A DNA stretch of 51,969 nucleotides from Promethearchaeia archaeon (GCA_029856155.1 JAHQWL010000027.1:1-51969), one strand, 5' to 3'. Numbered from the stretch's first letter, positions 3,183 to 49,692 are shown. Numbers and translations: made by a program. Notes: a model not told the origin generated them from the sequence alone.

Positions 3183-3256
3183 TTTATTTTAGTGATAAAA
3201 GTAGAATTTATTTAAAATAAATGTATGTAATTGTTATTATAATAATTTAGGTATTT

Positions 3257-4375
3257 TTGACTAGTTTTACTTGTGCAATGACAGGAAAAAATAAAATTGG
3301 AATTATTGTTGATGAGGATTTTGCGACAAAAAACGTACCCCCTTATCCATATCCTACATTTCTTTCGTATGAAACACCCTTAAGAATTAAATCAATCTTA
3401 AGTTATTTAGAAAAGAATGAGATTTTTAAAAATGAGAGGATTGTTAAGTTAAAACCAAGCACAGTAGAAGAAGACATTATTCATTTAGCACATACAAAAT
3501 ATCATATTAATTCAATTAAAGCTCTTTCAAGTAGGGGAAATGGATTATTAGGTGAGGAAGTGTATGTCACTGAAGATACATTTGAATTAGCTAAAAAAGC
3601 TATAGGAGGTGCTATAAATGCAATTACTAGTGTAATAAATCATGAAGTTAATCAATCAATTGCACTTATAAGACCCCCAGGACATCATGCCTTGCGAGAA
3701 ACTGCTTCTGGGCTTTGTATCTTTAATAATATAGCAAATTCTATAATCTTTTTACGAGAAAAGCTTCAGTATACTAAAAGAATAGCAATAATCGATATAG
3801 ATGCTCATTTTGGGGATGGTCTTGTCCAATATTTCTACGATGATCCAAGTGTATTATATTTCTCCATTCATGAGTATGATTTTGTGGAAGGTGAAATAGG
3901 ATTTATTGATGAATTAGGTACGGGAGAGGGGCTTGGGAAAAGTATCAACTTTCCAATACCTTTAAATTCTAATGATAATGATTTTTTGGAATCTTTAGAA
4001 TTACTTGAGCTTATTTTAACAGAATATAAACCAGATCTCATTTTAATCGCCGCGGGTTTTGATATGTATTTTGCTGATCCAATAGGAAACTGTCTATTAA
4101 CAACGATATCATATTATAAATTTACTGAGAAATTATTGAAAATTGCTGAGGATATTTGTGAAGGCAAATTAGCTTTTATACTGGAAGGGGGTTATAGTTT
4201 AATAGGATTACCTGTTTGCGTACATTCTGTGATTAAAGCTTTGTTAAAAGAGAAGTATGAACCTCCTCCTTTTGAATATTTAGATTTTTCAAGTAATTCC
4301 AAAAAAAGTGAAATAAGTAAGATTAAATCTAGCTTAAAAAAACTCTTAGCTACTTATTGGAGTTCTATAGTTTAA
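3257..4375 (+). CDS. Histone deacetylase family (HDAC/AcuC/AphA) Zn-dependent deacylase
   Basis: RPPGHH, GLCIFNN, DIDAHFGDG, AGFD..ADPIG and LEGGY motifs. Start is probably the later ATG (MTGKNK). Confidence 0.92.
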   Translation: MTSFTCAMTGKNKIGIIVDEDFATKNVPPYPYPTFLSYETPLRIKSILSYLEKNEIFKNERIVKLKPSTVEEDIIHLAHTKYHINSIKALSSRGNGLLGEEVYVTEDTFELAKKAIGGAINAITSVINHEVNQSIALIRPPGHHALRETASGLCIFNNIANSIIFLREKLQYTKRIAIIDIDAHFGDGLVQYFYDDPSVLYFSIHEYDFVEGEIGFIDELGTGEGLGKSINFPIPLNSNDNDFLESLELLELILTEYKPDLILIAAGFDMYFADPIGNCLLTTISYYKFTEKLLKIAEDICEGKLAFILEGGYSLIGLPVCVHSVIKALLKEKYEPPPFEYLDFSSNSKKSEISKIKSSLKKLLATYWSSIV

Positions 4376-4390
4376 AAAAGATAAAAAAAA

Positions 4391-4801
4391 TTAAATAAGA
4401 CTGCTGAGTTTTAAAGCATAATCTTGAGCTGCAAAGAGCGCATCTCTAGGACCTGCTTGAGGATTTATATAACAAACTAATGCCCCAGTACCTCCTATTG
4501 GAACAGGACAAATAATAAGATGCCCTTTACCAGTAATATTTGTCCCAATTTTTCTCTCTTCTGTGTTCTCTACTATCATATACTTAATACCTTGAATTGT
4601 AATACTACTTATTCCCTTTTGTCCCAACTGTAGCTTCTGATTAAGTAATTCATTAATTAGATCAAGATCATTAGTTAAATCCCAATTTTCTGTTTGAGTT
4701 ATTATTCTGCCATCTTTACTAATTATAGCGACACCAAAAATATTAGTTTCTTCGTTTAATAAATCATCAATTATAGCTTCAATTTCGGACATTTCCACCA
4801 A
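4391..4801 (-). CDS. Profilin (Loki-type actin regulator); probable ATG start at 4792
   Basis: IITQTENW, IQGIKYMIVENTEERKIGTNITGKGH and PQAGPRD match the characterised Lokiarchaeota profilins as I recall them. Confidence 0.9.
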   Translation of the reverse strand: MVEMSEIEAIIDDLLNEETNIFGVAIISKDGRIITQTENWDLTNDLDLINELLNQKLQLGQKGISSITIQGIKYMIVENTEERKIGTNITGKGHLIICPVPIGGTGALVCYINPQAGPRDALFAAQDYALKLSSLI

Positions 4802-4897
4802 ATATTTATTATTAAATTGTTATAATAACATAAATAAAATCAATCATAAATTTAAATATAATTTAAAAATAAATTGAAAAAAGCATGGTGAAATTAA

Positions 4898-5440
4898 TTG
4901 GCTTTTAGAATGTGGAGAAAGGCTATTCTTTTATCATTACGAGAAAAGAAAGTTTTTATAATATTTACACTTATATATACAATACTAATATTTTTAACGA
5001 GCCTCTTCTGGGAATTAGCAGTTAGTGGAGATCTAGTTGGAGCAGGATATCTCCTAGCTATTTTTTTTGGTACTTCTTTAATTCTTTCATTACTTTATGC
5101 ATGGATTTTAGTTTCAAGAAAGAGGCGTGTTTGGGCAACCTTCAAATGTATTGGATATACAAATAAAAATATATTATCTTTGGTTTCAGGAATGATTCTG
5201 TTTACTACTATAGTCGGATTTTTAATTGTTATTGAAGTGTTATTTCATTATACTGCTGCTTTGGCTTATTTACACTCAGAAGGATTTCTAACAAGTATTA
5301 ACGAAATCCTAGTCGGACTACTTCCAGTGATAATTACAAGCGCATTATTTATTATTGTTCAATTAATTGCTTTTATTTTAGTATATAGAAAGGTTCTTAA
5401 AGTGCGCCCAATAATAGCACTAAAAAAAGTAGGTGAGTAA
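4898..5440 (+). CDS. Minimal FtsX/MacB-type ABC permease (4 TM, no large extracellular domain)
   Basis: RKRRVWATFKCIGYT matches the R.RE.G.LKALG permease motif, C-terminal V.PI.AL, and an ABC ATPase is adjacent. Confidence 0.75.
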   Translation: MAFRMWRKAILLSLREKKVFIIFTLIYTILIFLTSLFWELAVSGDLVGAGYLLAIFFGTSLILSLLYAWILVSRKRRVWATFKCIGYTNKNILSLVSGMILFTTIVGFLIVIEVLFHYTAALAYLHSEGFLTSINEILVGLLPVIITSALFIIVQLIAFILVYRKVLKVRPIIALKKVGE

Positions 5441-5455
5441 GGAGGTTAGAGAAAA

Positions 5456-6145
5456 ATGTCATCTGATAAAAATATTATGATTGAAGCTGTAGATATTAAT
5501 AAAGAATACAGAAGAGCTGGTGCGATTATTAGAGCGTTAGCAGATGTGAATTTAAAAATCAAATCCGGAGAATTTGTTATGATTCAAGGTCCAACTGGTT
5601 GTGGAAAATCAACACTTCTCAACGTTCTATCGGGACTAGATTTACCAGATTCTGGTAGAATCATTTTTGATGGAGAAAATATTGCTAGGGCAACTGAGGA
5701 TAGATTAAGCAAACTCAGAAGACAGAAAATTGGGTTCGTATTTCAAGATTTTAATCTTGTTAATACGTTGACAGCGATTGAAAATGTAGAATCAGTTTTA
5801 TGGCCAACAGTATTACGTCAAAAAGAGATTGAAAATAGAGCAATTACAGCCTTAAGAGATGTTGATTTACTCGATCGTAAGGATCACTATCCTGTTCAAA
5901 TGTCTGGTGGCGAAAAGCAGAGATGTGGTATCGCTCGTGCAATCATTCATAGACCAAGAGTTATTTTGGCTGATGAACCTACTGGAAACCTTGATCCGGA
6001 ATCAGAAAAGCAAGTCATGGATTTACTTAAAAAAATAAATAAAGAAATGGAAACCACAATCTTAGTAGTGACTCATAGAGATTTATCTAAATATGGAGAT
6101 AAAACAATACGTATGGATTCTGGTCGAATAACTAAAATTCAATAA
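5456..6145 (+). CDS. ABC ATPase, LolD/MacB/FtsE family
   Basis: GPTGCGKS, IGFVFQDFNL, MSGGEKQR, ILADEPTGNLD, VVTH; upstream GGAGG ribosome-binding site. Confidence 0.93.
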   Translation: MSSDKNIMIEAVDINKEYRRAGAIIRALADVNLKIKSGEFVMIQGPTGCGKSTLLNVLSGLDLPDSGRIIFDGENIARATEDRLSKLRRQKIGFVFQDFNLVNTLTAIENVESVLWPTVLRQKEIENRAITALRDVDLLDRKDHYPVQMSGGEKQRCGIARAIIHRPRVILADEPTGNLDPESEKQVMDLLKKINKEMETTILVVTHRDLSKYGDKTIRMDSGRITKIQ

Positions 6146-6363
6146 ATTTATTCTTCATTTTTTAACTTTAATTTTAAATCTTTTTTTAAAATGTTAATTA
6201 ATCCTTAAATAATATTGGTATTTTATACTCTTGAGGTTTTATTATAATAATATCAGCTAAATTTTAGATTGATTTTTATGCCAAAAATATAAATATGCCT
6301 TGTATTTTTGATTAGTAATAAGGAAATTAAAATCATTCAATCACTTATGGAAAGGGGATAAAA

Positions 6364-7137
6364 ATGGGATGGGGGCGTGTAATAAAATCAGGTTGTGCAG
6401 GGATGTGTTGTCTTATTCCTATGGCATACATTTCATTTCGGTTTCTCAATCTCACAGAGGGCGTAACAGGTGGATTAATTGCGAATATAGATGATGCAAT
6501 TGCTAATTTAATGAGCGCTCTTGGTCTTGGTGGATTAGGAATTTTTATACAATTTCTGGCCGGAATGTTAATTGGTATTGTACTTATATTTTTATTTCCT
6601 ATACACTGGTGTCTTTTTTATCGTCCTGATGATGTGATGTTACTCATCGCAATAACAATTCCTTGGATTTTATGTTGTGCCATAACAAGTGGGCTTTTTG
6701 CTCACTCTCCACGTGGAGGTTTACATACTAGTCTAGCAATAGGAATAGGTTATGCGATTATTTTTACTGTGCCCTACATTATATTAGCTATAGCATTTCC
6801 ATTAGGAGCAGTAATATTAGATGGACTACTATGGGGATTATCAAGTTTACCGTATCTTGTTGCTGTTCTTACTGCAATTTTTGAAGGTTGTTTAGTTGGA
6901 GCTGTGTTTGGAGCATTTATAGGAAGTTTAAGATATAAAGGTAAGGAAGGGGAACAAAAACAAAAGAAAAAGAAAGTGAAAGTCAAAAAAGAGGTTACCA
7001 AAACTTCTGAAATGTTCCTACCAGAAATTGTTGAAGAAAAAACTATAAACCTAACTTCAATGGATACTTGTAGCAATTGTGGAGCTAAATTTACTACAGA
7101 TGATTTATTTTGCACTAATTGTGGAGCTAAAAAATAG
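6364..7137 (+). CDS. Membrane protein with C-terminal zinc ribbon
   Basis: 5-6 Gly-rich TM helices, Lys-rich linker, CSNCG...FCTNCG. Confidence 0.75.
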   Translation: MGWGRVIKSGCAGMCCLIPMAYISFRFLNLTEGVTGGLIANIDDAIANLMSALGLGGLGIFIQFLAGMLIGIVLIFLFPIHWCLFYRPDDVMLLIAITIPWILCCAITSGLFAHSPRGGLHTSLAIGIGYAIIFTVPYIILAIAFPLGAVILDGLLWGLSSLPYLVAVLTAIFEGCLVGAVFGAFIGSLRYKGKEGEQKQKKKKVKVKKEVTKTSEMFLPEIVEEKTINLTSMDTCSNCGAKFTTDDLFCTNCGAKK

Positions 7138-7284
7138 AAATATATTATTTTTCAAGTTATTGAAATATAAATCCCTGAATTGTTTTTTTTTTAAAACTCC
7201 TAAATAATTCGATATAAAATATATTAATTATTAAATTATAGTATTTTATATTAATATTAAAAATTCAATGTATTAATACAGATT

Positions 7285-8289
7285 ATGTCAAGAGAAATAA
7301 AAGGAATTTTACTCAGTCGCTTAATCGTTTTGGTTTCAATTTTTTTAGTTCCTATCATAATTTTTTTAATATATAACTTAGTTAATTTCAATTTATGGTT
7401 TTCAAATGATCCAACACTCAAAACAGTATTAATAAAAGTACTATGCCCAACTGTATTTAGTATTTCATGGTTGTTCTTTTTGATTCTATTCGTGAATCGC
7501 TTTGCTTCCACTCTCGATGATTTTGATACAACTATTAGTGTTGTCCCTTCAAGATTAAAGTTCTTTTATGGAATCAATGCAGTATATATTCTTTTTATCT
7601 TTATATTTCCCATAATTACCCCGATAATTGCTGTATTAAGTTTTGCATCCTTTGCATGGAGATTGACAACTTTCAGAAAAAAAAGATGGGAAGAAGATAC
7701 TAAAGTCTCTTTAATAACTTGGATCATGATGGGAATTGCAGCAATTCTTCCTATATTCTGTGGAATAATAGTTCTACCCGAATTTTTTACTTTAGCACTA
7801 TTCCTATGGAAAGTAATTTGGGTACCCAATCTTGACATACTTTTTACAATTTCTTATTCATTGTTTACCGCATTAGCTATTGGTTCTTTTGTTTTATTAT
7901 TTTTAAATTCTGGAATAAGTGAATATGAACAACTTTTTGTAGAATCTTCAAAAAGGGAGAGTTTCTGGAACGTCAAAGTTCTTGAAATTGGATTATTTGG
8001 GTTTTTTTTGTTTTTAGATTTTGGTGGATATGAAGTAATTGATTTGTTTTATATGGCCGGATTTGTATTTATAATTCTCATCTCAATTATTAACTTTTTT
8101 CAAGGAAAGACGAAAATAGTCAGTTTTAAAAGTCACTTATTTGGATATATAATAGCAGCCGTATTTATTGGCTCAAATGTTATTTTCTCAACAACAGAAA
8201 TATCTGGATTCCTTAGAGTGTGGAGTTTGATTATTTCAGCAGTATTATACATTATTGTGTTTTTTTATACCTTTTTAGTGGCTGAATAA
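7285..8289 (+). CDS. Polytopic membrane protein of unknown function
   Basis: 334 aa with ~9 hydrophobic segments. Confidence 0.7.
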   Translation: MSREIKGILLSRLIVLVSIFLVPIIIFLIYNLVNFNLWFSNDPTLKTVLIKVLCPTVFSISWLFFLILFVNRFASTLDDFDTTISVVPSRLKFFYGINAVYILFIFIFPIITPIIAVLSFASFAWRLTTFRKKRWEEDTKVSLITWIMMGIAAILPIFCGIIVLPEFFTLALFLWKVIWVPNLDILFTISYSLFTALAIGSFVLLFLNSGISEYEQLFVESSKRESFWNVKVLEIGLFGFFLFLDFGGYEVIDLFYMAGFVFIILISIINFFQGKTKIVSFKSHLFGYIIAAVFIGSNVIFSTTEISGFLRVWSLIISAVLYIIVFFYTFLVAE

Positions 8290-8502
8290 AAATTTAAAAT
8301 TAAATTTTTTTCTAATCAGAAATAAACCATTTTAAGATAAAGAAATAATTCTTTTTTCTGTATAGAAAATATTTCTCATTTTAAATTGATTAATAATGGT
8401 TCTATTTTAAAGTAATTATAATATGTATAAGGAAATAATTATTCAAACGATTTTAACGCTCAATTCTCTAATATATTTTATTGAATGTCCAAATGATTAA
8501 AG

Positions 8503-8520
8503 ATTCTACTATATTAGAAT
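8503..8520. promoter_or_regulatory. Palindromic operator-like site ATTCTA-N6-TAGAAT
   Basis: attctactatattagaat is 16/18 identical to the reverse complement of 12815-12832 and lies just upstream of an AT-rich TATA-like stretch. Confidence 0.55.
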
Positions 8521-8591
8521 AAAAATTATTAAAAACTCAGATTTTGATTATTACCTTAATACAATTCATAATTTAAAATTAATAAGAATAT

Positions 8592-10664
8592 GTGAAAAAC
8601 ATGAAAAATTTAAATACAAAAACGATAATGGTCATTACAATTGTCCTTACTTCAGTTTTCGCAATGCCTATGGTAGCTATGGGACAGGAAAAAGATTATG
8701 ATGACGCTTTTAATTTCAACCAACTTGATGTAGGTATTTTCCAAGGTTTTTTGGGGGGTTTTGGGGGAATATTTAGCAATAACTTAGGTTATGCAGGGGG
8801 TATCCTTGGAACTATTTTTGAAACTTTATTGCAGCAAGGATTAGATCTTGATTCTTATCAGATATTAGATAATGTGTATGTTTTAAATGCAACTACGACT
8901 AGCACAATATCAGATGAGAAAACATTTACACCTGAAAATAATAAAGAATATTATCTTCTTCCTAATGAGTATGAAGTTCCAGAAGATCAAGGATTTGCAT
9001 ATTGTGAAATTACGAAATCTGGAAGCTATGTATACGATCTAGAAGTAGGCGCAGCAGTAACCCTTATTATATGGGATAGCGACAAATCTTTTATTAATGC
9101 TATAACTAGATTACTCGGTGTTGTCAGAAGGATTATAGGACTACAATCTTTGGGAAGACAAATAACTCTAGATCTTATTCGGGAAGGAATTAGCGCAATT
9201 ACATGGTTTTTAATTCATATAAATGATATATTCACTGGAGACGAATTATTTGTACTAAATCCTATCACATGGCAGAAATTAAACATCACTCCATTAATTA
9301 CTTATGATATTGATAAAGATTGGTACTATTCTGGTCCTGATTATAAAATCGGTGGTGAAGATGATTCTCGTGTAAATACCACAGTAAGAGCAGATTGGAA
9401 CAGTACCGCCCTAACAAGACAAGATAGTTACATGCAATGGTTATTGAGACCAACCGCACCAGGAGACTTAGCCGAAACTATTTGGACTCAATTTTCTTTT
9501 GATTTAATCCAGCTATGGATGAAAAATTTCGAACTCCATATTGATGTAGCTGAGATTCTTAATGCTGCAACAGGCGCTTCAGGATCTCCAGAACAAGCAA
9601 TTGCTAGTGCCTTTGGTGGATGTGATATTGAGTTCTATTTATTTACACATCATCTAGCGGGGGCTTTCTTGTACGATGATGCAAACGCAGATGAGCAAAT
9701 TTCTGCTAACTATGTAAATGTGACCAATAATCTCGGTGAAACAGTATTGGATGCCGCAGGTGATCCTATCCAAATCCCTGATCATTCTGAACTCACTCAT
9801 GGAATAATTTTAGGCACTGTTGGGAATTTTGATTTTAATACGCCTAAACCTAATGTAGGAGAAAAAAGCATTTCCTGGGGTATAACATTAAATAATGTTA
9901 ATGTATCGGCTGTACCCATGTTTGTTGATTTAGACTCATATTTAAAAGCCCCAGAGGAAGAACTTGCTTCTATTTACTTTGGTTTTACCTTTGAACCAAC
10001 AGTAGATGATGAATTAGGGGTTGCAAAAGGTGTGGTTAAATTAGATCAAGAATTTGCTCCTTGGAACGACGGAAATGGGCCTAACTCTATTATCCTAGGA
10101 TTAGATTTGGCAATTATTTATGTATCAACTGTGTTGCATTTCCATCTAAATGTGGCTTTGGAAGGAGAACCAGATAAACCAGAAGAGATTTTGGATCCAA
10201 CCGAAGATTATTATGCAGAAAGTCATGAAGTAAAAGTAGGAAATTATATTGGCCGACACACAAGCCAAAAGTTAGATTTTGTCGATATTGCAGGGCTCTA
10301 TTATCAACTTGGGACGGATAAATCAACAGCACCTCAATATAATGCAAGTACAAGTATTTTACCGCTTGAGTTATGGAGATGGGAAATGGAGAGACATGAC
10401 ACATTTGAATTAGGAGATGGTACCGAATCACAAACCTTTGCTTCAGATATAAGGATTTCAACAGAATTCAATGTAATGGTATATGCTGTCTGTTATCCTG
10501 AATTTAACGGAACTGGTTTAGGTATTTTCCACGATCCTACCTTCTCAGTTTACATGGTGTTCGAAAGTGAAGGATTCTGGGCTTTAATTGTTTTGATTGC
10601 TGGAGTTGGATTAGTTGGCGTTGCAACCATATTAATCAAGCGAAGAAAGGATCAAAGATTTTAA
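8592..10664 (+). CDS. Secreted, C-terminally anchored acidic cell-surface protein
   Basis: N-terminal signal peptide (..TIMVITIVLTSVFAMPMVAMG), acidic beta-rich body, HDPTF motif, C-terminal TM plus KRRK tail. Confidence 0.75.
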   Translation: MKNMKNLNTKTIMVITIVLTSVFAMPMVAMGQEKDYDDAFNFNQLDVGIFQGFLGGFGGIFSNNLGYAGGILGTIFETLLQQGLDLDSYQILDNVYVLNATTTSTISDEKTFTPENNKEYYLLPNEYEVPEDQGFAYCEITKSGSYVYDLEVGAAVTLIIWDSDKSFINAITRLLGVVRRIIGLQSLGRQITLDLIREGISAITWFLIHINDIFTGDELFVLNPITWQKLNITPLITYDIDKDWYYSGPDYKIGGEDDSRVNTTVRADWNSTALTRQDSYMQWLLRPTAPGDLAETIWTQFSFDLIQLWMKNFELHIDVAEILNAATGASGSPEQAIASAFGGCDIEFYLFTHHLAGAFLYDDANADEQISANYVNVTNNLGETVLDAAGDPIQIPDHSELTHGIILGTVGNFDFNTPKPNVGEKSISWGITLNNVNVSAVPMFVDLDSYLKAPEEELASIYFGFTFEPTVDDELGVAKGVVKLDQEFAPWNDGNGPNSIILGLDLAIIYVSTVLHFHLNVALEGEPDKPEEILDPTEDYYAESHEVKVGNYIGRHTSQKLDFVDIAGLYYQLGTDKSTAPQYNASTSILPLELWRWEMERHDTFELGDGTESQTFASDIRISTEFNVMVYAVCYPEFNGTGLGIFHDPTFSVYMVFESEGFWALIVLIAGVGLVGVATILIKRRKDQRF

Positions 10665-36227: not shown

Positions 36228-37430
36228 ATGAATGATATAAAAGTAGATTGGAAAGGACATGTGGAAAAGTATCAAACGGCGATGGTGGAATTGAATCTTG
36301 ATTTTTGCATTCTTACTCGTGTTAAATCGATTACGTATTTAGCTGGGTGTTTTGTGCCTTGGAAAAGTTATATATTTCTCCCTAAAGAAGGTGCTGGAGA
36401 CCCAATATTATATACTGTATTATTAGATACAGAAAGGGTAAAAGCAGAAGGACACTTAGAAGATGTTCAGGGTTGGGGTCCTCTTAAAGGGTTCTTTATT
36501 GAGAAAAAGATCCAAAAAGCAGCTAAAAAAACTGGGTTATATACATCAAAAGGTTCTCCACCTAGAATTGGGGTCGAATTAGGGCTCGATATCTGTGTGA
36601 CTGGTCAAATGTTATCCCACTCGGAAGCTCTATTATTAGAACAAGTGTTTCCTGGGTGTGAATTGGTAGATTTTAATGAAAAAACCGAAAGAATACAATT
36701 TATTAAAGAACCAGAAGAAATAGCGTTATTAAGAAAAGCAAGTGAAATCACCGATATAGGACAAGTTACTGTAAAGAAAGAATTAGAAGAACGCCCTTCG
36801 GGAAAAATCTTTACTGAAAATGAGATAGCTGGAATTGGAACATTAGCAATGAGAAAAGCTGGGAGTAATTATGAATGGACATTTACTGGAAACCAAGAAA
36901 TCGGTTCAGGATACCGCGCTAGTTGGACTTTTAATGGCTGTACACCTGCAACAAATAAAAAAGTAAATGAGAGTGAATCCCTATTAGTAGATCTTCATAG
37001 TGAGTATGGATGTTATCTTGGAGATTTAAGTCATAATTACATTCTTGGCAAATGTCCTTCAGAATTGAAAGCTTTTAATGATGTGTATGAGCAACTTTGC
37101 TATACTCTTATCGATAATATGTATCCTGGAAATTCATTTGAAGAGTGTTATCAAGAAGTAAGAAAGGTCGCCGAAAAAGCAGGATATGAAAATGATTTAT
37201 TTTTTGGGATAGGTCATGGAATAGGTTGTATTGGGAATGAGTCATGGCCGGTTATAGTTCCTGGAAAAGAATGGGGTCCAATGATATTTGAGGAGAACAT
37301 GGTTGAAATCGCAGCAATAGTATTTAATCGTCCTGGCCTTGGAGGTCTTCGACTTGAGTCACCTACCCTTGTAACAAGGAAAGGTGCGGAAGTGCTCCCT
37401 AAAACGCCATTTGAAGTCGATTATGTATAG
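36228..37430 (+). CDS. M24 (pita-bread fold) Xaa-Pro peptidase/creatinase-like hydrolase
   Basis: IKEPEEI..LRKA, VD...Y.GD, GHGIG, G.RLES. Confidence 0.85.
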   Translation: MNDIKVDWKGHVEKYQTAMVELNLDFCILTRVKSITYLAGCFVPWKSYIFLPKEGAGDPILYTVLLDTERVKAEGHLEDVQGWGPLKGFFIEKKIQKAAKKTGLYTSKGSPPRIGVELGLDICVTGQMLSHSEALLLEQVFPGCELVDFNEKTERIQFIKEPEEIALLRKASEITDIGQVTVKKELEERPSGKIFTENEIAGIGTLAMRKAGSNYEWTFTGNQEIGSGYRASWTFNGCTPATNKKVNESESLLVDLHSEYGCYLGDLSHNYILGKCPSELKAFNDVYEQLCYTLIDNMYPGNSFEECYQEVRKVAEKAGYENDLFFGIGHGIGCIGNESWPVIVPGKEWGPMIFEENMVEIAAIVFNRPGLGGLRLESPTLVTRKGAEVLPKTPFEVDYV

Positions 37431-37524
37431 ATTTGATTAATTTATCTTTAGATTAATCAAATATAATTTATTTTAAAAAAAATATATCTTTTGTTATAGA
37501 ATATCTAAATCTCAAAAAGAAAAC
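37353..37524 (+). repeat. Direct-repeat unit 1 (intact M24 3' end + hairpin spacer + decayed M20 start)
   Basis: Aligns to 40039-40211. The M20-start relic (atagaatatctaaatctcaaaaagaaaac) begins 66 nt after the stop, the same spacing as the real M20 ATG after the relic stop. Confidence 0.8.
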
Positions 37525-37530
37525 ATTTTT

Positions 37531-38427
37531 TTAATTTAATAACTCTAAAAATCTTTTTAAAATAGCATGATATTCATCTCTTTTGAGTAAAGTGCCCATA
37601 TGCCCAACATTCTCAAATATGATTTCTTCCACATTGGGATATTGGCTTCTTAATTCCTCATGATAAGGAAATCCATTATCATCATTCGCTGTAAATATTA
37701 GAACTTTACCATCCCACCCGTCATAATTTTCTATATTGTATTTTTCACCATTGAATTCACCTGTAAGAATCGATTGGCATAGTATAACACTCTTCTCTAC
37801 TTTACTAAACCTTTCTTTTACAAATGCTAATGTAAATTTTAACTCCTCCCGAATTTCAGGAGTCATTTCTTTTTCTTCATTTGCTAATTTCAAAAGTTTT
37901 TTTGACATCAACTTCTTTAATAGAAAAGCCGGTATAAATTTAAGCAGCTTATTAGTTTTTTTAAAATCGTTTACCCATTCATTTTTTGGAGGATAGCTAT
38001 TGATAAGAATAAGTGCTTCTATATTTTTATAATTTCTATGGAAATATGGTTGAGCCATAAAACTTCCAAAACTCTGACCTATTAATATATATCTCTTCAC
38101 ATTTTCTTTTTTTAGAATTTCATTTACACCTTCACTAAATTCATCCAAACTTTCAAAATTCGTAATTGATGGGGCGATAACTCTATAATTTTTTTCAAAA
38201 AATCGTATCGCTTGAAAATTACCCTCAGCATTTCCAAGTGCTCCATGAAAGGTAAGAACTGTTTTTTTACCAGTTCCACAGCTAATATACTCTATTTCCT
38301 TATTTCTGAACATTATCATTTTTGTAGGATGATTTCTTCTATATTCCACAAGGCCTTGATAAAGTTCCGGAGCTATATCCTTATAAAATTTGGAATTACT
38401 TTGATTTTTCATCTCTAATAGCCTCAA
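37531..38427 (-). CDS. Alpha/beta hydrolase; probable start at 38412
   Basis: FHG, GQSFG nucleophile elbow, ANDD, VGH. Confidence 0.88.
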   Translation of the reverse strand: MRLLEMKNQSNSKFYKDIAPELYQGLVEYRRNHPTKMIMFRNKEIEYISCGTGKKTVLTFHGALGNAEGNFQAIRFFEKNYRVIAPSITNFESLDEFSEGVNEILKKENVKRYILIGQSFGSFMAQPYFHRNYKNIEALILINSYPPKNEWVNDFKKTNKLLKFIPAFLLKKLMSKKLLKLANEEKEMTPEIREELKFTLAFVKERFSKVEKSVILCQSILTGEFNGEKYNIENYDGWDGKVLIFTANDDNGFPYHEELRSQYPNVEEIIFENVGHMGTLLKRDEYHAILKRFLELLN

Positions 38428-38636
38428 TTTTTACTTTACCTAAAATTTTTTTATCGCTATTTAGGCATAACTAATATTGATATATAAATATTTTTATTCT
38501 TTTATGGAATTTGAGTAATCTATTCAAATTTTGATATTAGGTTATGTTTAAAAATATCTAAATTAAATAATTTAAGATTTCTTCAATTAATGTATATATT
38601 TTGTATATAAACTTAGTAGGTCTAATATTATAAATT

Positions 38637-38705
38637 TCAAGTAAATATGCTGAAATATTTCCTAAAACATTATTTGAAGTTGACTATGTCTAGTTTTCAT
38701 TAAAC
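38637..38705 (+). pseudogene. Direct-repeat unit 2: relic of the M24 gene 3' end
   Basis: Translates SSKYAEIFPKTLFEVDYV* versus real TRKGAEVLPKTPFEVDYV*, followed by tttcattaaac as in unit 4. Confidence 0.8.
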
Positions 38706-38769
38706 CGTTTTAAGTTATTCTTTTTAATTAGCCTAATTCTATTTGAATTTGAAGTATTGGAAATGAGAT

Positions 38770-39840
38770 TTAAGATTTTTTAGATTTTTTCATTTTAATT
38801 TCTGTTTTTTCAAGGTCAAGTTTGTGTTTGTTTGAGTATATTTTTACTGGTTTAGATTTATCAATTGGTCCATAACATGCCCAACACGCATTTTCCAAAG
38901 TAGTTAAAGCTTGAGCACATTTTTGGCAATATAAAGCACCACAAGCTGGACAAATAAAGGTAAATCCTTCTGCTGTACCTTTACATACTAAACAGATCTT
39001 TCTTTCCTTATGAAAAACGATGTCTTCTTCGGTTATGTTTTCTGGGCGCATCTCAAAAAGTCTAAATAAATCTCCCTCAATTTTAATTTCTTTTTCTTCA
39101 GGTTTTTCTTTTTTAACTTTTATACGTTCTTCTCTTAAGGCAAAATACCACATCCAAGCAGTGATTAAAAATAGAAATCTAAAGAAAAATTTCATTATTA
39201 CTAATGTAATAATAAATTCTATTATTGCAGAAGTGGTTGCTAGAATTTGACCATAACTTAGTAAGAAATATTTCCTCCTTATGATTCCCTCAGATTGCAT
39301 TCCTTTATAAAAAGCCCCAAAACCGAGAAAAATAAATTGTTGAAGTATGAAGAATAAGACTATAATAATGAAAACGTTGATATTGGCTGAAAAAATTAAA
39401 AATTCTTCCTGGGCAGTAGATAAATTAGAGATATTCCAATATTTTCCAGGATCTTGGATATATATTATTGAGAGTATGATTCCACATAATATATTCACTA
39501 TTATTATGATCTGCTTTGTTTTTTTAGAAAGCCATAAATCAATCCCAAAATAAATAGTAGTTATATTAATTAAAAATACAGAAAGACCAATTAGAACTAA
39601 AGGAATACCATATAAATCTATCATATTTTCTCCTTTTATAAGATAATAGAAGAAATTCACAGTATACCCTAAATACAGGAGTGCTACTGAACATAACATA
39701 ATACCGGCAATTCCTAATCGTCTAGTATGAGTCTTTTTAGATTTAAATAGGAAAAAAAAACCAAAAATCATCTCGAAGAAAAACACACTGAGAAAAGATA
39801 TTGCATTCAATAATCCAATAATATTAACCATTTCTTTCAC
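38770..39840 (-). CDS. 7TM membrane protein with C-terminal 8-Cys (C4C4 RING-like) zinc finger
   Basis: ~7 TM helices, charged linker, CLVC-x9-CPAC-x4-CQKC-x10-CWAC. Confidence 0.75.
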   Translation of the reverse strand: MKEMVNIIGLLNAISFLSVFFFEMIFGFFFLFKSKKTHTRRLGIAGIMLCSVALLYLGYTVNFFYYLIKGENMIDLYGIPLVLIGLSVFLINITTIYFGIDLWLSKKTKQIIIIVNILCGIILSIIYIQDPGKYWNISNLSTAQEEFLIFSANINVFIIIVLFFILQQFIFLGFGAFYKGMQSEGIIRRKYFLLSYGQILATTSAIIEFIITLVIMKFFFRFLFLITAWMWYFALREERIKVKKEKPEEKEIKIEGDLFRLFEMRPENITEEDIVFHKERKICLVCKGTAEGFTFICPACGALYCQKCAQALTTLENACWACYGPIDKSKPVKIYSNKHKLDLEKTEIKMKKSKKS

Positions 39841-39901
39841 AGATTGTATTTTATTTCCATATTTTTCTACTGGTTTTCAATTAATGCATGAACTTTTCAA
39901 T

Positions 39902-40039
39902 TAGATATTATTCAAATTTGTATAGTCAATATATATAATTTACTATAACATTTACCTAAATATCATAGAAACATCTAAGTTCATAAAAGATAAACTAAAT
40001 TATATTCTAAAGATGTTAGTTCAAATCCCATCAGAAAAC
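39902..40039 (+). pseudogene. Direct-repeat unit 3: spacer + relic of the M20 gene 5' end
   Basis: 39965-40039 translates IETSKFIKDKLNYILKMLVQIPSEN versus real MEITNSLKEKLLYILKNLIQIPTEN; offset 217 nt. Confidence 0.82.
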
Positions 40040-40256
40040 TTGAGTCTTCTACCCTTGTTACAAGCAAATGTGCTGAAGTCCTCCCCAAAACTCCGTTCGA
40101 AGATGATTATGTCTAGATTTGATTGATATTTCATTAAACTAGTCAAATTTAATTTATTTTAGTACATTTTTTTCTAATATTATGGAAATAACTAATTCGT
40201 TAAAAGAAAAATTGCTCTATATTTTGAAGAATTTAATTCAGATTCCTACTGAGAAT
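40039..40256 (+). repeat. Direct-repeat unit 4: relic M24 3' end (40039-40116) + spacer + intact M20 start
   Basis: LESSTLVTSKCAEVLPKTPFEDDYV* versus LESPTLVTRKGAEVLPKTPFEVDYV*; 64/78 nt identical to 37353-37430. Confidence 0.9.
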
Positions 40257-41324
40257 CCACCTGGAAAAACCGAAGAAGTGGTTAATTTCTTGGTTAAGGA
40301 AGTTTTCAAAGAAGAAGAAGGTTTCCGTAATAAAATTATTACTCATATGAAAAACGGTGTTAAACTCCATAATTTAGTATCAAAAATTGGTTCAGGAAAA
40401 AAGAAGATATTATTATCCGGACATTTTGATGTGGTACCCGTTGGAGATCAAACCAAATGGTCTTATCCTCCATTTTCTGCTAAAGTTGTGGATAATAGAG
40501 TATATGGTCGAGGATCTGCTGACATGAAAGGAGGAATAACGTCAATAATAGGAGTAATGAAGTTATTAGAGTCAAACAGCCATTTTATGGAAAATTATGA
40601 GCTTATTTTCCTAGGTTCTGCTGACGAAGAAGCAGGTATGACTGGCTCTGAGTTATTATCGAAGAAAGAATTTATCAATAATGCTGAATTAATAATTATA
40701 GCTGAACCTACTAATTTAGACATTGGTGTTGCTGAAAAAGGTGTATTATGGGCGACTATACGGGTTATTGGAAAGTCAGCTCATGGATCTATGCCTCAAG
40801 AGGGACATAATGCGATAGAAGGAATCTTTAAAATTATTCCTAAAATAAATAATTGCTTAGAAAATAAATCAAATAAAATTCTTGGAAGATCCACTATAAA
40901 TATTGGAAAAATTCATGGTGGTACAAAAATTAACATTGTCCCTGATTATACCGAATTAGAAATTGATTTTAGATTAATCCCCGAACAAGAACATGAAAAA
41001 GTAATAGATAATTTGAGAGAAATTGAATTAGAGCCTTATTCTATTGATGTTGAAATTACAAACTCATTACACTCTTTATTAACTGACACAAATCATCCAT
41101 TCGTCCAAAATTTGAAAAATATAACGAATTCAGAATTTATTGGTTTATCTTATGCCACTGATGCTTGTAAATATATAAGTCCTACAAATTTTATTCCCTT
41201 TGTTATATTTGGTCCAGGGGATCCAAATAATGTTCATAAGCCAAATGAATGGGTACAATTAGAACAAGTATTCCAAACAACAGAATTATTAACCGAAGCG
41301 CTTATAAAAACTTATCTCAAATAG
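40182..41324 (+). CDS. M20 metallopeptidase (ArgE/DapE family)
   Basis: GHFDVVP, GRGSADMKGG, ADEE, AEP, G..AHGS.P, H..NE. Confidence 0.93.
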   Translation: MEITNSLKEKLLYILKNLIQIPTENPPGKTEEVVNFLVKEVFKEEEGFRNKIITHMKNGVKLHNLVSKIGSGKKKILLSGHFDVVPVGDQTKWSYPPFSAKVVDNRVYGRGSADMKGGITSIIGVMKLLESNSHFMENYELIFLGSADEEAGMTGSELLSKKEFINNAELIIIAEPTNLDIGVAEKGVLWATIRVIGKSAHGSMPQEGHNAIEGIFKIIPKINNCLENKSNKILGRSTINIGKIHGGTKINIVPDYTELEIDFRLIPEQEHEKVIDNLREIELEPYSIDVEITNSLHSLLTDTNHPFVQNLKNITNSEFIGLSYATDACKYISPTNFIPFVIFGPGDPNNVHKPNEWVQLEQVFQTTELLTEALIKTYLK

Positions 41325-46580: not shown

Positions 46581-47540
46581 ATGCCAGAAAAAGTCACAAT
46601 ATCGGATATAGAATTGATTTTATCAGAACCCGCTCAAGTTGATATGCAATGGGTTGGTAATGATGATTTAATAAAGCAACTAAAAGCAGCGTGGATGATT
46701 GTTGACAAAGAGGATTTACCTCTTAATCCAAGAATACTAGGAAAGCCAGGTGTTGGTAAGACAACACTTGCTTATGCTGCTGGAAGAAGATTAGAAAAAG
46801 ATGTATATATGTTTCAATGTACAATGGATACGCGCCCTGAAGATTTGCTTATTAGCCCTGTTATTGCTTCAGATACTAAAATAGCCTATGTCGCGAGTTC
46901 TTTAGTATCTGCTATGGTAAAAGGAGGAGTATGTTTACTGGATGAGGGAAATAGGATGAGTGAAAAAAGTTGGGCGTCATTAGCACCATTGATGGATAAG
47001 AGACGCTATGTTGAGAGTATTATAGCAGGTATAAGGATTTACGCTCATCCAGATTTTCGGTTATGTGTCACTATGAATGCTGATTCTAGCACTTATGAAA
47101 TTCCAGAATATATTCAATCTCGTTTACAACCTAAAATTTATATAGAATTTCCAAACAAAATTGATGAGTTAAAAATATTAAAGTACAATTTACCATTTGC
47201 CTCAGAGGAAATATTAGAATATTGTGTAAATTTCCTTCAAAATGCTCATATACATGACGAACCTTATACTGTGAGAGATGGTATTAATATTTTAAGATAT
47301 TATATTAAGTCGAGAATGATGAAGAAAGAAAACCAAGATATAATAGAAAAAAGCACATTAGAAAATGCTGTGATTCAAATATTAGAAGAAGCCGCTTTAA
47401 AATATTTACCGGGAAATTATGAAGAATTTATGAAAAAGCAGAAAGAATCAATCTCTTTTAGGTTATTGAAAGATATTGAGGAAGTTAATGATTATTATGA
47501 TAAATTTGTAAAAAAATCTGATAAAGATTCTAATATTTAG
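46581..47540 (+). CDS. MoxR/CbbQ-NirQ-type AAA+ ATPase
   Basis: GKPGVGKT, LLDEGNR, HPDFRL..TMN, SRL. Confidence 0.88.
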   Translation: MPEKVTISDIELILSEPAQVDMQWVGNDDLIKQLKAAWMIVDKEDLPLNPRILGKPGVGKTTLAYAAGRRLEKDVYMFQCTMDTRPEDLLISPVIASDTKIAYVASSLVSAMVKGGVCLLDEGNRMSEKSWASLAPLMDKRRYVESIIAGIRIYAHPDFRLCVTMNADSSTYEIPEYIQSRLQPKIYIEFPNKIDELKILKYNLPFASEEILEYCVNFLQNAHIHDEPYTVRDGINILRYYIKSRMMKKENQDIIEKSTLENAVIQILEEAALKYLPGNYEEFMKKQKESISFRLLKDIEEVNDYYDKFVKKSDKDSNI

Positions 47541-47809
47541 AGTTTGTTTTATCATATTTCAAGAAATTAAAAAAGAGTTTGTTATTGAATAAGTTTTTGA
47601 TTGATTTAGATACTTCTTAATAAATCTCTATCTTCCCTATCGTTTTAAGAGTCGTACAGTAATATCTAACAGCACAAGTATATTTAACACTATCGATACT
47701 ACACTTGTAATTAAAAATGAACTTGTCTAAATATATTAATTTAGTAAATATTAAATTCATGTAAAATATCAAAACTAACATAAAATCTGGTTTTATTAAA
47801 AAAATAGTT
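47496..47809 (+). repeat. Direct-repeat copy A: intact MoxR 3' end + internally deleted relic of the 49255..49692 gene and its promoter
   Basis: 47496-47728 aligns to 49117-49346. The minus strand reads ..SFLITSVVSIVLNILVLLDITVRLLKR* versus ..PFVITCVSYIVLSILTLLGIIIRLLKR*. 47776-47809 matches 49756-49789 at 27/34. Confidence 0.88.
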
Positions 47810-47882: not shown

Positions 47883-48908
47883 TTATATTTGGAAAAACAT
47901 TAATTTTAAGACTACGTAAAATCCATAAAAACCTATTAATAGTGCAGCTTCCCACTGTTTAAGCTTTTTTTGAGACCACAAGAAAAAGAATGCAATTGAT
48001 AGGCCAATAAGAAGCATTGGTATATCGAATAATAATAATATTGGGGTTACGTTAAAATCAATTATTAATACACCTGATCCAGTTGCTAGAAGTATATCGC
48101 AGATATTAGAGCCTAAGATATCACCTATAGCAAGTCCACACGATCTCCGTCGTATAGCTGTTAAATCTGCTATAAGTTCGGGTAAACTCGTGCCTACCCC
48201 TACAATCAATATTCCAATTACATTTTCTGGAATATATAATTCTTTTGCTAAACTATGTGCTGATAGAAGTGTAATTTCAGCTCCAACTAATAAAATAAAA
48301 AGCCCTATTAAAAAAATGCCGATCTCTTTTCGGAGTGATGATGTTTTTAAGGGTGTTTCGATGATTTCAAGATCTTGAGGTTGTAATCTTTCTTTTTCCA
48401 AATTTTGGATATCCATTCTTGCTTTTGCTATTTTTTTTTCGCTCCAAATTATTATTAATAAGTATGCTATGTATATTATTATCATCATGATACCCTCTAT
48501 GCGAGATAAAACACCATCAATGGCAAATATTAAAAATATGAAGACTGAAAAAAACAACATTGGTCCTTCTCGTCTTAACTCCCATTTGCTAACCATAATA
48601 GCTTGGCTAACACCCAATATTCCCAAAATAAGAGTAATTTGGGTAAGAAATGATCCAATTTTATTTCCGATTACAATTCCATCTATAGTTGTATCTATTC
48701 CTGTTAATTTGTCGATTCCTCCCATGATGCTTACTGAGATTTCAGGTAAACTAGTTCCAATCGCTAAAATAGTGAGCCCCACTAATAAATGACTTATGCC
48801 AAAACGGTTAGCTATTCTTTCAAGTCCTATTATAGCAAATTTAGCGCCAAAATATAAGCCGATAAAACCTAATAGAAGAAATCCAATAATTAAAGTTAAT
48901 GTTAGCAA
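47883..48908 (-). CDS. Ca2+/cation antiporter (CaCA, YrbG/NCX_Mj-like)
   Basis: Two alpha repeats GTSLPE, ~10 TM, GDILGSN. Confidence 0.93.
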   Translation of the reverse strand: MLTLTLIIGFLLLGFIGLYFGAKFAIIGLERIANRFGISHLLVGLTILAIGTSLPEISVSIMGGIDKLTGIDTTIDGIVIGNKIGSFLTQITLILGILGVSQAIMVSKWELRREGPMLFFSVFIFLIFAIDGVLSRIEGIMMIIIYIAYLLIIIWSEKKIAKARMDIQNLEKERLQPQDLEIIETPLKTSSLRKEIGIFLIGLFILLVGAEITLLSAHSLAKELYIPENVIGILIVGVGTSLPELIADLTAIRRRSCGLAIGDILGSNICDILLATGSGVLIIDFNVTPILLLFDIPMLLIGLSIAFFFLWSQKKLKQWEAALLIGFYGFYVVLKLMFFQI

Positions 48909-49116
48909 CTTAGCTCCAATTTTTTTTGAAAGACTCCTATAAAGATAAAATTATTAAAGACAACAATTTTAAGAGTAAAATCTATATAAAGTTATCCATT
49001 CTTTATCCAGAAGTAATCCATATTATGGACTTAAACTATACATCTCCAATTTTATTCTGGATAAATATTCATTATGTTTTTATAGGTTTAATTCTCTTGA
49101 ATTGTATATTTGAAAT

Positions 49117-49346
49117 AATGCAAAATATGTAAAAAAATCCGATGTGGATTCATATATTTAGAATTTTATTTATCATATTTCAAGAAATTAAAAAAAAATT
49201 TGTTATTAATTTGGTTTTTGATTAATATAGATACTTAATAAATCTACATCTTCTCTATCGTTTTAAGAGTCGTATAATTATACCTAATAATGTAAGTATG
49301 CTTAATACTATATATGATACACATGTAATTACAAATGGACCTATCT
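49117..49346 (+). repeat. Direct-repeat copy B: relic MoxR 3' end + spacer + intact end of the 145-aa gene
   Basis: 49117-49161 translates NAKYVKKSDVDSYI* versus real YDKFVKKSDKDSNI*; the spacer tatcatatttcaagaaattaaaaaa is shared. Confidence 0.88.
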
Positions 49347-49692
49347 GTTCTCCTAGAGCTGACACAGCAGCAAATGCTTGTAATACTGTAGGCAACCAAA
49401 TTGATATAATAATAATATAAATAACCACTAGTCCAATGCCTATTCGATCTATTAATTTATATCGAGGGCTATTGACTTCCATTACTCCTATTAAGGTAAG
49501 TGTTTCAGCAAAAAACCAGTTAATAATTGGTATCATTAAAGCTAGAGCAAACGGAATTATATATTCAGTAGTAATATTTGCAAGAAGACTAGGACTCAAA
49601 CCGATCATAATAACTAACATCATTACTGATAACACTGTTATTAAACCGCTACATACTAAAATCAGAATATTACCTAATGGTGCAAATTTCAT
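49255..49692 (-). CDS. Four-TM membrane protein of unknown function
   Basis: 145 aa with four hydrophobic helices. Confidence 0.7.
   Translation of the reverse strand: MKFAPLGNILILVCSGLITVLSVMMLVIMIGLSPSLLANITTEYIIPFALALMIPIINWFFAETLTLIGVMEVNSPRYKLIDRIGIGLVVIYIIIISIWLPTVLQAFAAVSALGEQIGPFVITCVSYIVLSILTLLGIIIRLLKR

Follow-up and report, generated by a model that had tools for sequence, protein, structure and literature searches.

Displacement of Rhs C-terminal ends through circular intermediates has been proposed (Jackson et al., 2009; PMC2935791), and homology-facilitated illegitimate recombination has been proposed for the effector-immunity arrays of type VI secretion systems (T6SS; Kirchberger et al., 2017; PMC5361080). 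Here we describe an array of gene-end repeats and two cargo genes that lies between an M24 and an M20 peptidase gene of a Promethearchaeia archaeon (GCA_029856155.1, JAHQWL010000027.1:1-51969); this whole stretch of 51,969 nt is referred to below as the window. On our analysis, Rhs C-terminal displacement is the closest described model (PMC2935791). In the literature searched we found no description of such a pattern in Asgard or Lokiarchaeal genomes, only bacterial analogues. No closer relatives of eukaryotes are known than the Asgard archaea, and the ways in which they acquire genes are an open topic.

The array was probably formed by the stacking of two cassettes at an ancestral M24-M20 junction by homologous-recombination insertion-duplication, with DNA from related Promethearchaeia. 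The gene-end copies are best read as recombination scars that then became re-usable homology handles, and not as parts of a dedicated mobile element. The host assembly is a 4.1 Mb metagenome-assembled genome (MAG) in 104 contigs, 97% complete and with 5.7% contamination, and the related records are Promethearchaeota/Promethearchaeia (Asgard) MAGs. All genomes compared are MAGs or metagenome contigs; they are labelled with G-numbers (G000 is this genome), and L140 is the JGI metagenome contig Ga0307378_10017324. The features of the locus, in the order in which they occur, are as follows.

36228..37430, plus strand: M24 (Xaa-Pro/creatinase-type) peptidase gene (Pfam Peptidase_M24, 1.4e-21; Creatinase_N).
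37353-37430, plus strand: U1, the real M24 3' end (last 26 codons), part of the M24 gene.
37431..37495: spacer s1*, 65 nt, 3' of the real M24 stop, 92% identical to the intact M24-M20 spacer of G001.
37431-37462: inverted repeat with 11-nt arms, within that spacer.
37496..37524, plus strand: relic of the first 9 M20 codons, abutting the hydrolase stop and contiguous with the 150-nt repeat.
37531..38427, minus strand: cargo 1, alpha/beta-hydrolase gene, 298 aa (Pfam Abhydrolase_1, 1.1e-10; Ndr, 5e-7).
38428..38636: hydrolase upstream region ('up'), conserved in relatives, which travels with the hydrolase.
38637..38693, plus strand: U2, old M24 3'-end relic (approximately codons 381-400 and stop), with 76% identity to U1 across 66 nt.
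38694..38769: s2a, left half of a long 'type-2' spacer that is uninterrupted (s2a with s2b) in G021.
38770..39840, minus strand: cargo 2, membrane protein of 356 aa with about seven transmembrane segments (7TM) and, at its C-terminus, a zinc finger of four CxxC motifs.
39841..39964: s2b, the other (right) half of that type-2 spacer; its identity is 83% with G021 and 77% with G018.
39965..40039, plus strand: U3, relic copy of M20 codons 1-25 that derives from another M20 allele and has an ATA start.
40039..40116, plus strand: U4, M24 relic (codons 375-400 and stop) joined directly to U3, 82% identical to U1.
40117..40181: spacer s1, 65 nt, 5' of the real M20, 95% identical to its G021 counterpart and 72% to the first spacer; its promoter role is inferred, and it is presumed to be the M20 promoter region.
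40182..41324, plus strand: the real M20 peptidase gene (Pfam Peptidase_M20, 8.9e-29; M20_dimer).

A repeat search of the window aligns 37352-37501 with 40038-40187 (150 nt, 78% identity) and finds a 66-nt family in three copies, at 37375, 38638 (76%) and 40061 (82%). When the genome is compared with itself by blastn, 37352-37523 aligns with 40038-40210 (173 nt, 77.5%, E 2e-29). Read in the M24 frame, U1 gives LESPTLVTRKGAEVLPKTPFEVDYV, U4 gives LESSTLVTSKCAEVLPKTPFEDDYV and U2 ends in SSKYAEIFPKTLFEVDYV, each running into a stop codon. As an empirical null, the 66-mer of the M24 end was slid across all 8.2 million genome positions on both strands; U4 and U2 are the only positions at least 68% identical to it, and the next in the window reaches 52%. 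The recurrence of the M24 C-terminus at 37353-37430, 38637-38693 and 40039-40116, reported in a first-pass annotation, is confirmed, and no other copies exist in the genome. On the M20 side, U3 is 64% identical to the real M20 start at the nucleotide level (next-best window match, 54%), reads as M20 residues 1-25 and keeps all of the invariant residues L11, L15, L18, Q20, P22 and N25. The other M20 copy, 37496-37524, reads as M20 residues 1-9 and is by itself too short for significance; it is supported by its contiguity with the 150-nt repeat, and both M20 copies of that annotation (37496-37524 and 39965-40039) are present. The nine-codon copy has ATA for the start ATG and a 1-nt deletion; it is better preserved, with ATG intact, in G014, G018 and G021, and the G045 copy has ATA. 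The change from ATG to ATA is thus seen in both M20-start relics here (37496-37498 and 39965-39967) and in G045, which could be chance or selection against spurious translation starts. No close paralogue of M24 or M20 was found elsewhere in the genome, where the other matches are at most 31% identical, and this rules out a paralogue as the source of the repeats.

Both short spacers measure 65 nt from stop to start, as had been noticed earlier for the first and fourth units (66 nt by that counting). The spacing is 65-66 nt in seven other genomes, six of them with an intact M24-M20 pair. The four units described earlier resolve into three copies of one junction: U1, U2 to U3 (split by the 7TM gene) and U4. 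The first (J1) comprises the real M24 end, the 65-nt spacer and nine M20 codons; the second (J2) comprises an M24 relic (approximately codons 381-400), the long spacer split by the 7TM gene, and 25 M20 codons; the third (J3) comprises an M24 relic (codons 375-400), the 65-nt spacer and the real M20. J2 abuts J3 at 40039.

The order CDC48, M24, a variable interval and an aminotransferase gene on the minus strand is conserved across Promethearchaeia, and M24 orthologues with 80-92% amino acid identity occur in at least 60 genomes, mostly adjoining CDC48. M24 directly adjoins M20 in 10 genomes of the genus, with spacers of 26-27 or 65-66 nt. Among 54 complete Promethearchaeia loci the two genes are adjacent in 21-25, distant lineages included; 25 of the 54 read M24-M20-aminotransferase, 17 have M24 directly followed by the aminotransferase, and 12 have other inserts. 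The earlier suggestion that M24 and M20 were once neighbours is borne out by these counts. Because the adjacency is found in distant lineages (M20 approximately 52% identical), it is probably the ancestral state.

The M24-aminotransferase interval is a hotspot of change: G006, G001 and G018 have a truncated or deleted M24, and losses of M20 are numerous. A gene for an enoyl-CoA hydratase is gained and lost at the locus and has left a C-terminal relic in G021. In L067, the nearest relative found (M24 92% identical in amino acids), a deletion runs from the hydrolase into the hydratase. Separate inserts are seen elsewhere: a histidine kinase/response regulator in G009 and G065, and an MFS transporter with other genes in G018. 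The kinase/regulator cargo has an 88% identical copy at another locus of G046, without flanking repeats, and this copy may mark the original site of that cargo. Together with the old hydrolase event and the recent 7TM event described below, the separate inserts in other species bear out the proposal that the junction was struck repeatedly and at different times. Two further observations concern the interval. At L067:9200-9700 only the last 22 hydrolase codons are left; they run directly into the final 77 codons of the enoyl-CoA hydratase gene, and the rest of the array and M20 are gone. Additionally, G002 and G018 have a conserved ORF of 112 aa (L025:10509-10847 and L032:2743-3081) in the M20-aminotransferase interval; since it occupies the place of the enoyl-CoA hydratase of this genome, that interval is a second variable slot.

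The hydrolase cassette is present in nine of the 54 genomes of the genus, the orthologues in the other eight being 83-93% identical, and the gene sits at this locus in all seven other genomes whose flanks were examined. No second copy of the hydrolase was found in this genome. In the genomes with readable junctions the layout is shared: behind the real M24 end and the spacer come nine M20 codons, fused to the stop of the hydrolase gene, and then the region upstream of that gene. The breakpoints, M20 codon 9 to the hydrolase stop and the upstream region to M24 codon 335, are shared, and were read in five or six of the nine genomes. The nine-codon M20 relic is found at the identical 3' joint of the hydrolase in G014, G018, G021, G045 and L140, and the upstream region is conserved in G018, G042, G021, G046, G045, G062 and L140. 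Behind the upstream region there is an M24 3' relic in G018, G045, G042, G046, G000 and G021. It starts at codon 335/336 in both G018 and G045, at the same joint, and is trimmed to codon 373 in G042, 378 in G046, 381 in G000 and 386 in G021. It is absent in G014, G062 and L140, and G062 also lacks M24 and the nine-codon scar. A derived string, GAAATATTTCC, is common to U2 and the G046 and G021 relics (it reads GCTGAAATATTTCC in G046). The downstream partner of the relic varies, being M20, the aminotransferase or, here, the 7TM module. The hydrolase insertion is an old event. In G014, M20 is cut to its first 9 and last 40 codons around the hydrolase and orf74, which looks like a primary replacement inside M20. 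In G045, where the locus lacks M20, the first 11 nt of spacer s1 follow the nine-codon relic, and this suggests that M20 was deleted later.

Only two sources yielded the 7TM cassette: this genome and L140, a contig detected by a scan of JGI metagenomes with the 7TM protein. L140 comes from a close but distinct strain (approximately 95% nucleotide identity over CDC48-M24; 7TM protein 99% identical in amino acids). Its order begins with the real M24, s2a, the 7TM gene, s2b, and M20 codons 1-25 joined to a relic of M24 codons 375-400; it continues with s1*, nine M20 codons joined to the hydrolase, the upstream region, a different M20 allele and the aminotransferase. The order of the cassettes here, M24-hydrolase-7TM-M20, is therefore reversed in L140. 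The joint between U3 and U4 (M20 codon 25 to M24 codon 375) is identical in the two, and the slot that holds the 7TM module is the real M24 end in L140 and the relic behind the hydrolase here. A constant joint in two slots fits the result expected if a circle or an ends-in piece can meet either copy of the M24 end. The 7TM insertion is a recent event, and to find one cassette in alternative slots of two closely related strains is unusually direct evidence.

At the 14 informative sites, the M24 relic of L140 is U4-like to position 27 and U1-like from position 31. The real M24 end of L140 is U1-like at 31-42 and U4-like at 48-57 and 66-75; its positions 60 and 65 are U1-like, and one of these is a decay hit in U4. 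The pattern is suggestive of rough reciprocal hybrids. The type-2 spacer is uninterrupted in G021, and s2a follows the real M24 stop in both G021 and L140. In G021 and G018 the counterpart of s2b lies directly upstream of the nine-codon M20 relic, with a hybrid M20 start in G021, so that both arrangements are derivable from the L140 order by recombination between two copies of the M20 start.

Cargo 2 was read from hydropathy peaks and eight C-terminal cysteines; a Pfam match to zf-C3HC4_3 (7e-4) is weak and below the cut-off. The 7TM/zinc-finger family has 20 matches in this genome, the best 40% identical. It is large and fast-diverging, many copies in relatives carry in-frame stops, and the zinc-finger module is also seen at the C-terminus of open frames of approximately 600 aa. 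No relatives of either cargo gene were found on viral or episomal contigs in our scans.

The model that we favour would run as follows. Incoming DNA would carry a stretch of the M24 3' end and foreign cargo, either as a small circle or as a linear piece with both ends matching one target, and would recombine once with a chromosomal copy of the M24 3' end. The cargo would enter and the homologous stretch would then lie on both sides of it; the copy beside the gene body would keep M24 intact, and the other would become a silent relic before the former downstream DNA. In the old event the hydrolase, its upstream region and the nine-codon M20 scar would have been inserted, leaving U2 as the relic. 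In the recent event the 7TM/zinc-finger cassette, with its constant internal joint between U3 and U4 (M20 codon 25 to M24 codon 375), would have entered at U2; the candidate circle or ends-in piece consists of the M24 end, s2a, the 7TM gene, s2b and the M20 start. Copies of the M24 end could be re-used in this way for the gain, loss and re-ordering of cassettes. The repeats would be built from gene ends because selection keeps only those outcomes in which M24, M20 and the 65-nt M20 spacer are whole. What the data show are the repeats, the conserved synteny, relics of allelic origin, the second cassette order and a neighbourhood in which no recombinase was found; we infer that the intermediate was circular or ends-in and that general recombination (RadA) was at work.

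One-sided homologous recombination would not need circles. A linear fragment of a relative's DNA would anchor in M24 (or in M20 or the aminotransferase), its other end would join illegitimately within the resident gene end, and that end would be displaced as a relic; the joint between U3 and U4 would then be the illegitimate joint of an incoming fragment (M24 end, s1, M20) that replaced the resident M20 allele. Such events would yield the same allelic relics. The apparent primary replacement of M20 codons 10-339 in G014, with both M20 ends left as scars, speaks for this route, and G065 has only an aminotransferase 3' relic beside its kinase insert. The process is established in transformable bacteria and has been invoked for T6SS arrays, but it is reported to be rare relative to ordinary recombination (PMC5361080). 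Finding the same U3/U4 joint in two array positions would demand extra steps, namely deletion in a descendant and re-acquisition, and G021 has an s1-M20 start at 94-97% identity yet no U4. The linear-fragment variant is possible, especially for the primary events; as an account of the whole array we consider it unlikely.

The allelic make-up of the relics bears on whether they arose in place. U1 and U4 were compared with the final 26 codons of each of 64 real M24 genes. They differ at 14 of 78 sites, 11 of which are third-codon positions that are polymorphic among species; the remaining differences (P379S, G386C and V397D) affect residues that are invariant in 63-64 of the 64 genes. This pattern of 11 polymorphic third positions and three changes at invariant residues indicates that purifying selection acted while U4 and U1 diverged, that their distance became one typical of different species, and that U4 then decayed only briefly. 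Differences between U3 and the real M20 start fall on the three codon positions as 7/4/14, the identity lies inside the range of real genes compared with each other, and only the start codon has been lost. The first spacer is 92% identical to G001 and spacer s1 95% identical to G021, against 72% to each other. Relics hold stops, frameshifts and start-codon losses. Taken together, the sequences show that the relics are foreign alleles from related lineages rather than in-situ duplicates. The real M20 gene is itself a recombinant mosaic with a breakpoint a few hundred nucleotides into the gene: spacer s1 and the opening ~200 nt of M20 match G021 at 92-97%, whereas the later part matches it at 55-80% and is 83-93% identical to G001, G050 and G041. 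Since M20 is a mosaic of this kind, homologous exchange at the locus is seen directly.

Similar relics occur throughout the genome. A genome self-comparison gives 295 direct against 22 inverted same-contig repeat pairs. Filtering for relics (pairs of 50-450 nt, 0.3-8 kb apart, one copy coding and the other not) leaves 31 direct and 2 inverted pairs at ~23 loci, with a median repeat of 136 nt, gap of 1.8 kb and identity of 82.5%; the scan covers this genome only. In 18 pairs the repeat includes a gene 3' end, and the relic lies downstream in 18 of 18, beyond one to three cargo genes. Pooled over 30 relic pairs, the codon-position differences are 178/98/307. The number of such loci suggests that the process is general.

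Duplication of the junction in situ, by replication slippage, template switching or unequal crossing-over, with the cargo copied in and the copies diverging later, would account for the strong excess of direct repeats on the same contig (295 versus 22 inverted), and U3 does abut U4 in the manner of a tandem-duplication joint. In G009, a young independent case, the end of M24, the spacer and the aminotransferase 3' end (~260 nt) are duplicated around the kinase/regulator insert and the copies are nearly identical by eye (few mismatches and one 1-nt insertion), which also agrees with duplication in place. However, a neutral relic should change at every codon position no more slowly than the silent sites of the real gene, and the observed ratio is ~8-fold in the opposite direction. 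The spacers beside U1 and U4 are each much closer to another species (89% to G001 and 94% to G021 in this comparison) than to each other (72-78%), and the cargo has no second copy in the genome from which it could have been taken (7TM best match 40%; hydrolase none). We consider in-situ duplication to be very improbable.

A site-specific system, in which the gene-end repeats act as att- or attC-like sites of an integrative element or integron-like platform, would explain the order of gene, new 3' end, cargo and displaced 3' end, the geometry that results when integrases act on gene 3' ends. Elsewhere in the genome (C100) there are arrays with as many as five units, each starting at a stop codon, and an inverted repeat follows the M24 stop. 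Against this, no recombinase was found in the cassettes examined or on the contig. The assembly has a single tyrosine recombinase gene (PF00589), on contig C81 and not on this contig, and no serine recombinase (PF00239) was found in this 97%-complete assembly; one TnpB-like and two or three DDE transposase matches are also on other contigs. Searched with Pfam, the cassettes examined here contain no recombinase or element genes, only the hydrolase and the membrane zinc-finger protein, and no IntI was found among the genes of the locus beside the array. The bounding units are not attC sites: they are the M24 C-terminus and the M20 N-terminus, and they align codon by codon to orthologues. M24 relic starts are scattered over codons 324-386 (324, 327, 335, 336, 340, 373, 375, 378, 381 and 386), and there is no obvious shared core because the longest exact match between U1 and U4 is ~11 nt (by eye). 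The duplications measure 170-290 nt and show allele-type divergence, unlike an identical target-site duplication of 2-15 bp. No convincing terminal inverted repeats were found around either cargo gene, the nearest being a short AT-rich pair, I7. Integron, integrative-element and transposon readings thus fail their defining tests, and we rate a site-specific system as highly doubtful.

The inverted repeat at 37431-37462 was also considered as a crossover site and rejected. Its 5' arm is absent in G014 and G018b, the hairpin being incomplete in G014 and G018, and no breakpoint lies within it. Site-specific recombinases and transposases are very scarce in the assembly, and repeated elements may simply have failed to assemble in this MAG. 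The Rhs and contact-dependent inhibition (CDI) systems exchange a variable toxic tip together with an immunity gene; neither was found here, the exchanged ends being conserved M24 C-termini.

An assembly artefact, that is, a chimeric MAG contig stringing together the alleles of co-occurring strains, might be suspected in a 104-contig MAG with 5.7% contamination in which U3 and U4 resemble nearly undecayed alleles, but it is scarcely credible: both the U3/U4 joint and the complete 7TM module are found again, ~96% identical, in an independent metagenome contig, MAGs of several studies contain the hydrolase module with the same breakpoints, stops, frameshifts and a lost start codon occur in the relics, and no k-mer common to the copies is long enough for assembly graphs to merge.

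Several points weigh against insertion-duplication as we have set it out. Many inserts 3' of M24 in other species have no detectable M24 relic, and duplication is therefore not obligatory. The putative intermediate is deduced from assembled MAGs and contigs, and the model does not explain how the cargo was first linked to part of the junction. In L140 the hybrid pattern comprises 14 sites, scored against the alleles of this genome and not against the true parents. In-situ duplication followed by allelic replacement of one copy through ordinary recombination would formally be compatible with the data. To our knowledge, neither single-homology insertion-duplication nor one-sided illegitimate recombination has been demonstrated as a natural process in Asgard archaea.

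Two other loci in this genome illustrate the wider pattern. Within the window, 47494-47728 and 49115-49346 are ~235-nt copies, 80% identical, that flank a 341-aa gene on the minus strand (47883-48908); the first holds the real 3' end of a 319-aa gene (46581-47540) and the second that of a 145-aa gene (49255-49692). On contig C100, positions 1813-9901 hold a five-unit array of 3'-end relics of an Lrp/AsnC-type regulator gene (9772-10239, minus strand; named from sequence alone), and every unit begins at the stop codon. By eye, the cargo ORFs of that array resemble toxin-antitoxin genes (PIN/AbrB-like, HEPN/nucleotidyltransferase-like and RelE-like). An intact gene followed by direct 3' copies of variable length, with different DNA after each, is found here and in G018, G046, G066 and G009.

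More tentatively, gene-end fragments of Promethearchaeia might be generic, recombinase-independent cassette sites, small circles of gene end and cargo being excised and re-inserted within and between species; we hold this wider proposal to be conceivable rather than probable. If it is true, cassettes of one to three genes would be stacked and shuffled in an integron-like manner at dozens of loci per genome, and this would rank among the main ways in which Asgard archaea gain genes. Meanwhile the M24-M20 locus offers a concrete and testable route by which genes are added behind housekeeping genes without an integrase. The gene-end relics in these MAGs can be used as markers of recent acquisition, and should not be mistaken for mis-assemblies or for pseudogenes of unknown origin.

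The insertion-duplication that we propose shares features with several known systems. In Neisseria, as here, minimal mobile elements are cassettes between conserved flanking genes that are exchanged among relatives by recombination. They move by double crossover and show no gene-end duplicates. Campbell-type insertion-duplication resembles our model in that a single crossover duplicates the homology around the insert and the resulting direct repeats permit its loss; such pop-in/pop-out recombination is known as a laboratory procedure and not as a natural route. Integrative elements that target gene 3' ends give the same direct arrangement of gene, replacement 3' end, insert and displaced native end. 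They differ in that here there is no integrase and no fixed core, 170-290 nt are duplicated, and the inserts are 1-3 kb without element genes. In integron arrays, as here, single-gene cassettes are stacked between recurring units and their order varies among close relatives, but this locus has no IntI, attI or attC, its unit is a locus-specific fragment of the neighbouring genes, and its crossovers vary.

The T6SS effector-immunity arrays are related, with successive addition downstream of a conserved anchor, older material pushed back, no integrase, and double-crossover exchange beside rarer additive events. In contrast, no more than the final 60-200 nt of a gene and the spacer serve as anchor at this locus, events are marked by relic ends rather than by orphan immunity genes, and the same cassette is found in two slots. 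Closest of all, on our comparison, are the Rhs arrays, and with them the CDI orphan modules. There too an intact gene is followed by direct 3' repeats of variable length, each before unrelated DNA; in Rhs arrays the incoming pieces come from relatives and a proposed recombination with a circle shunts the old end downstream. The displaced ends here are isofunctional alleles of a housekeeping peptidase, however, whereas those of Rhs are variable toxin tips with immunity genes. Additionally, at this locus the 5' end of the downstream gene is duplicated too and the cargo consists of ordinary genes; the host belongs to the Asgard archaea, and ~23 unrelated loci show the pattern.

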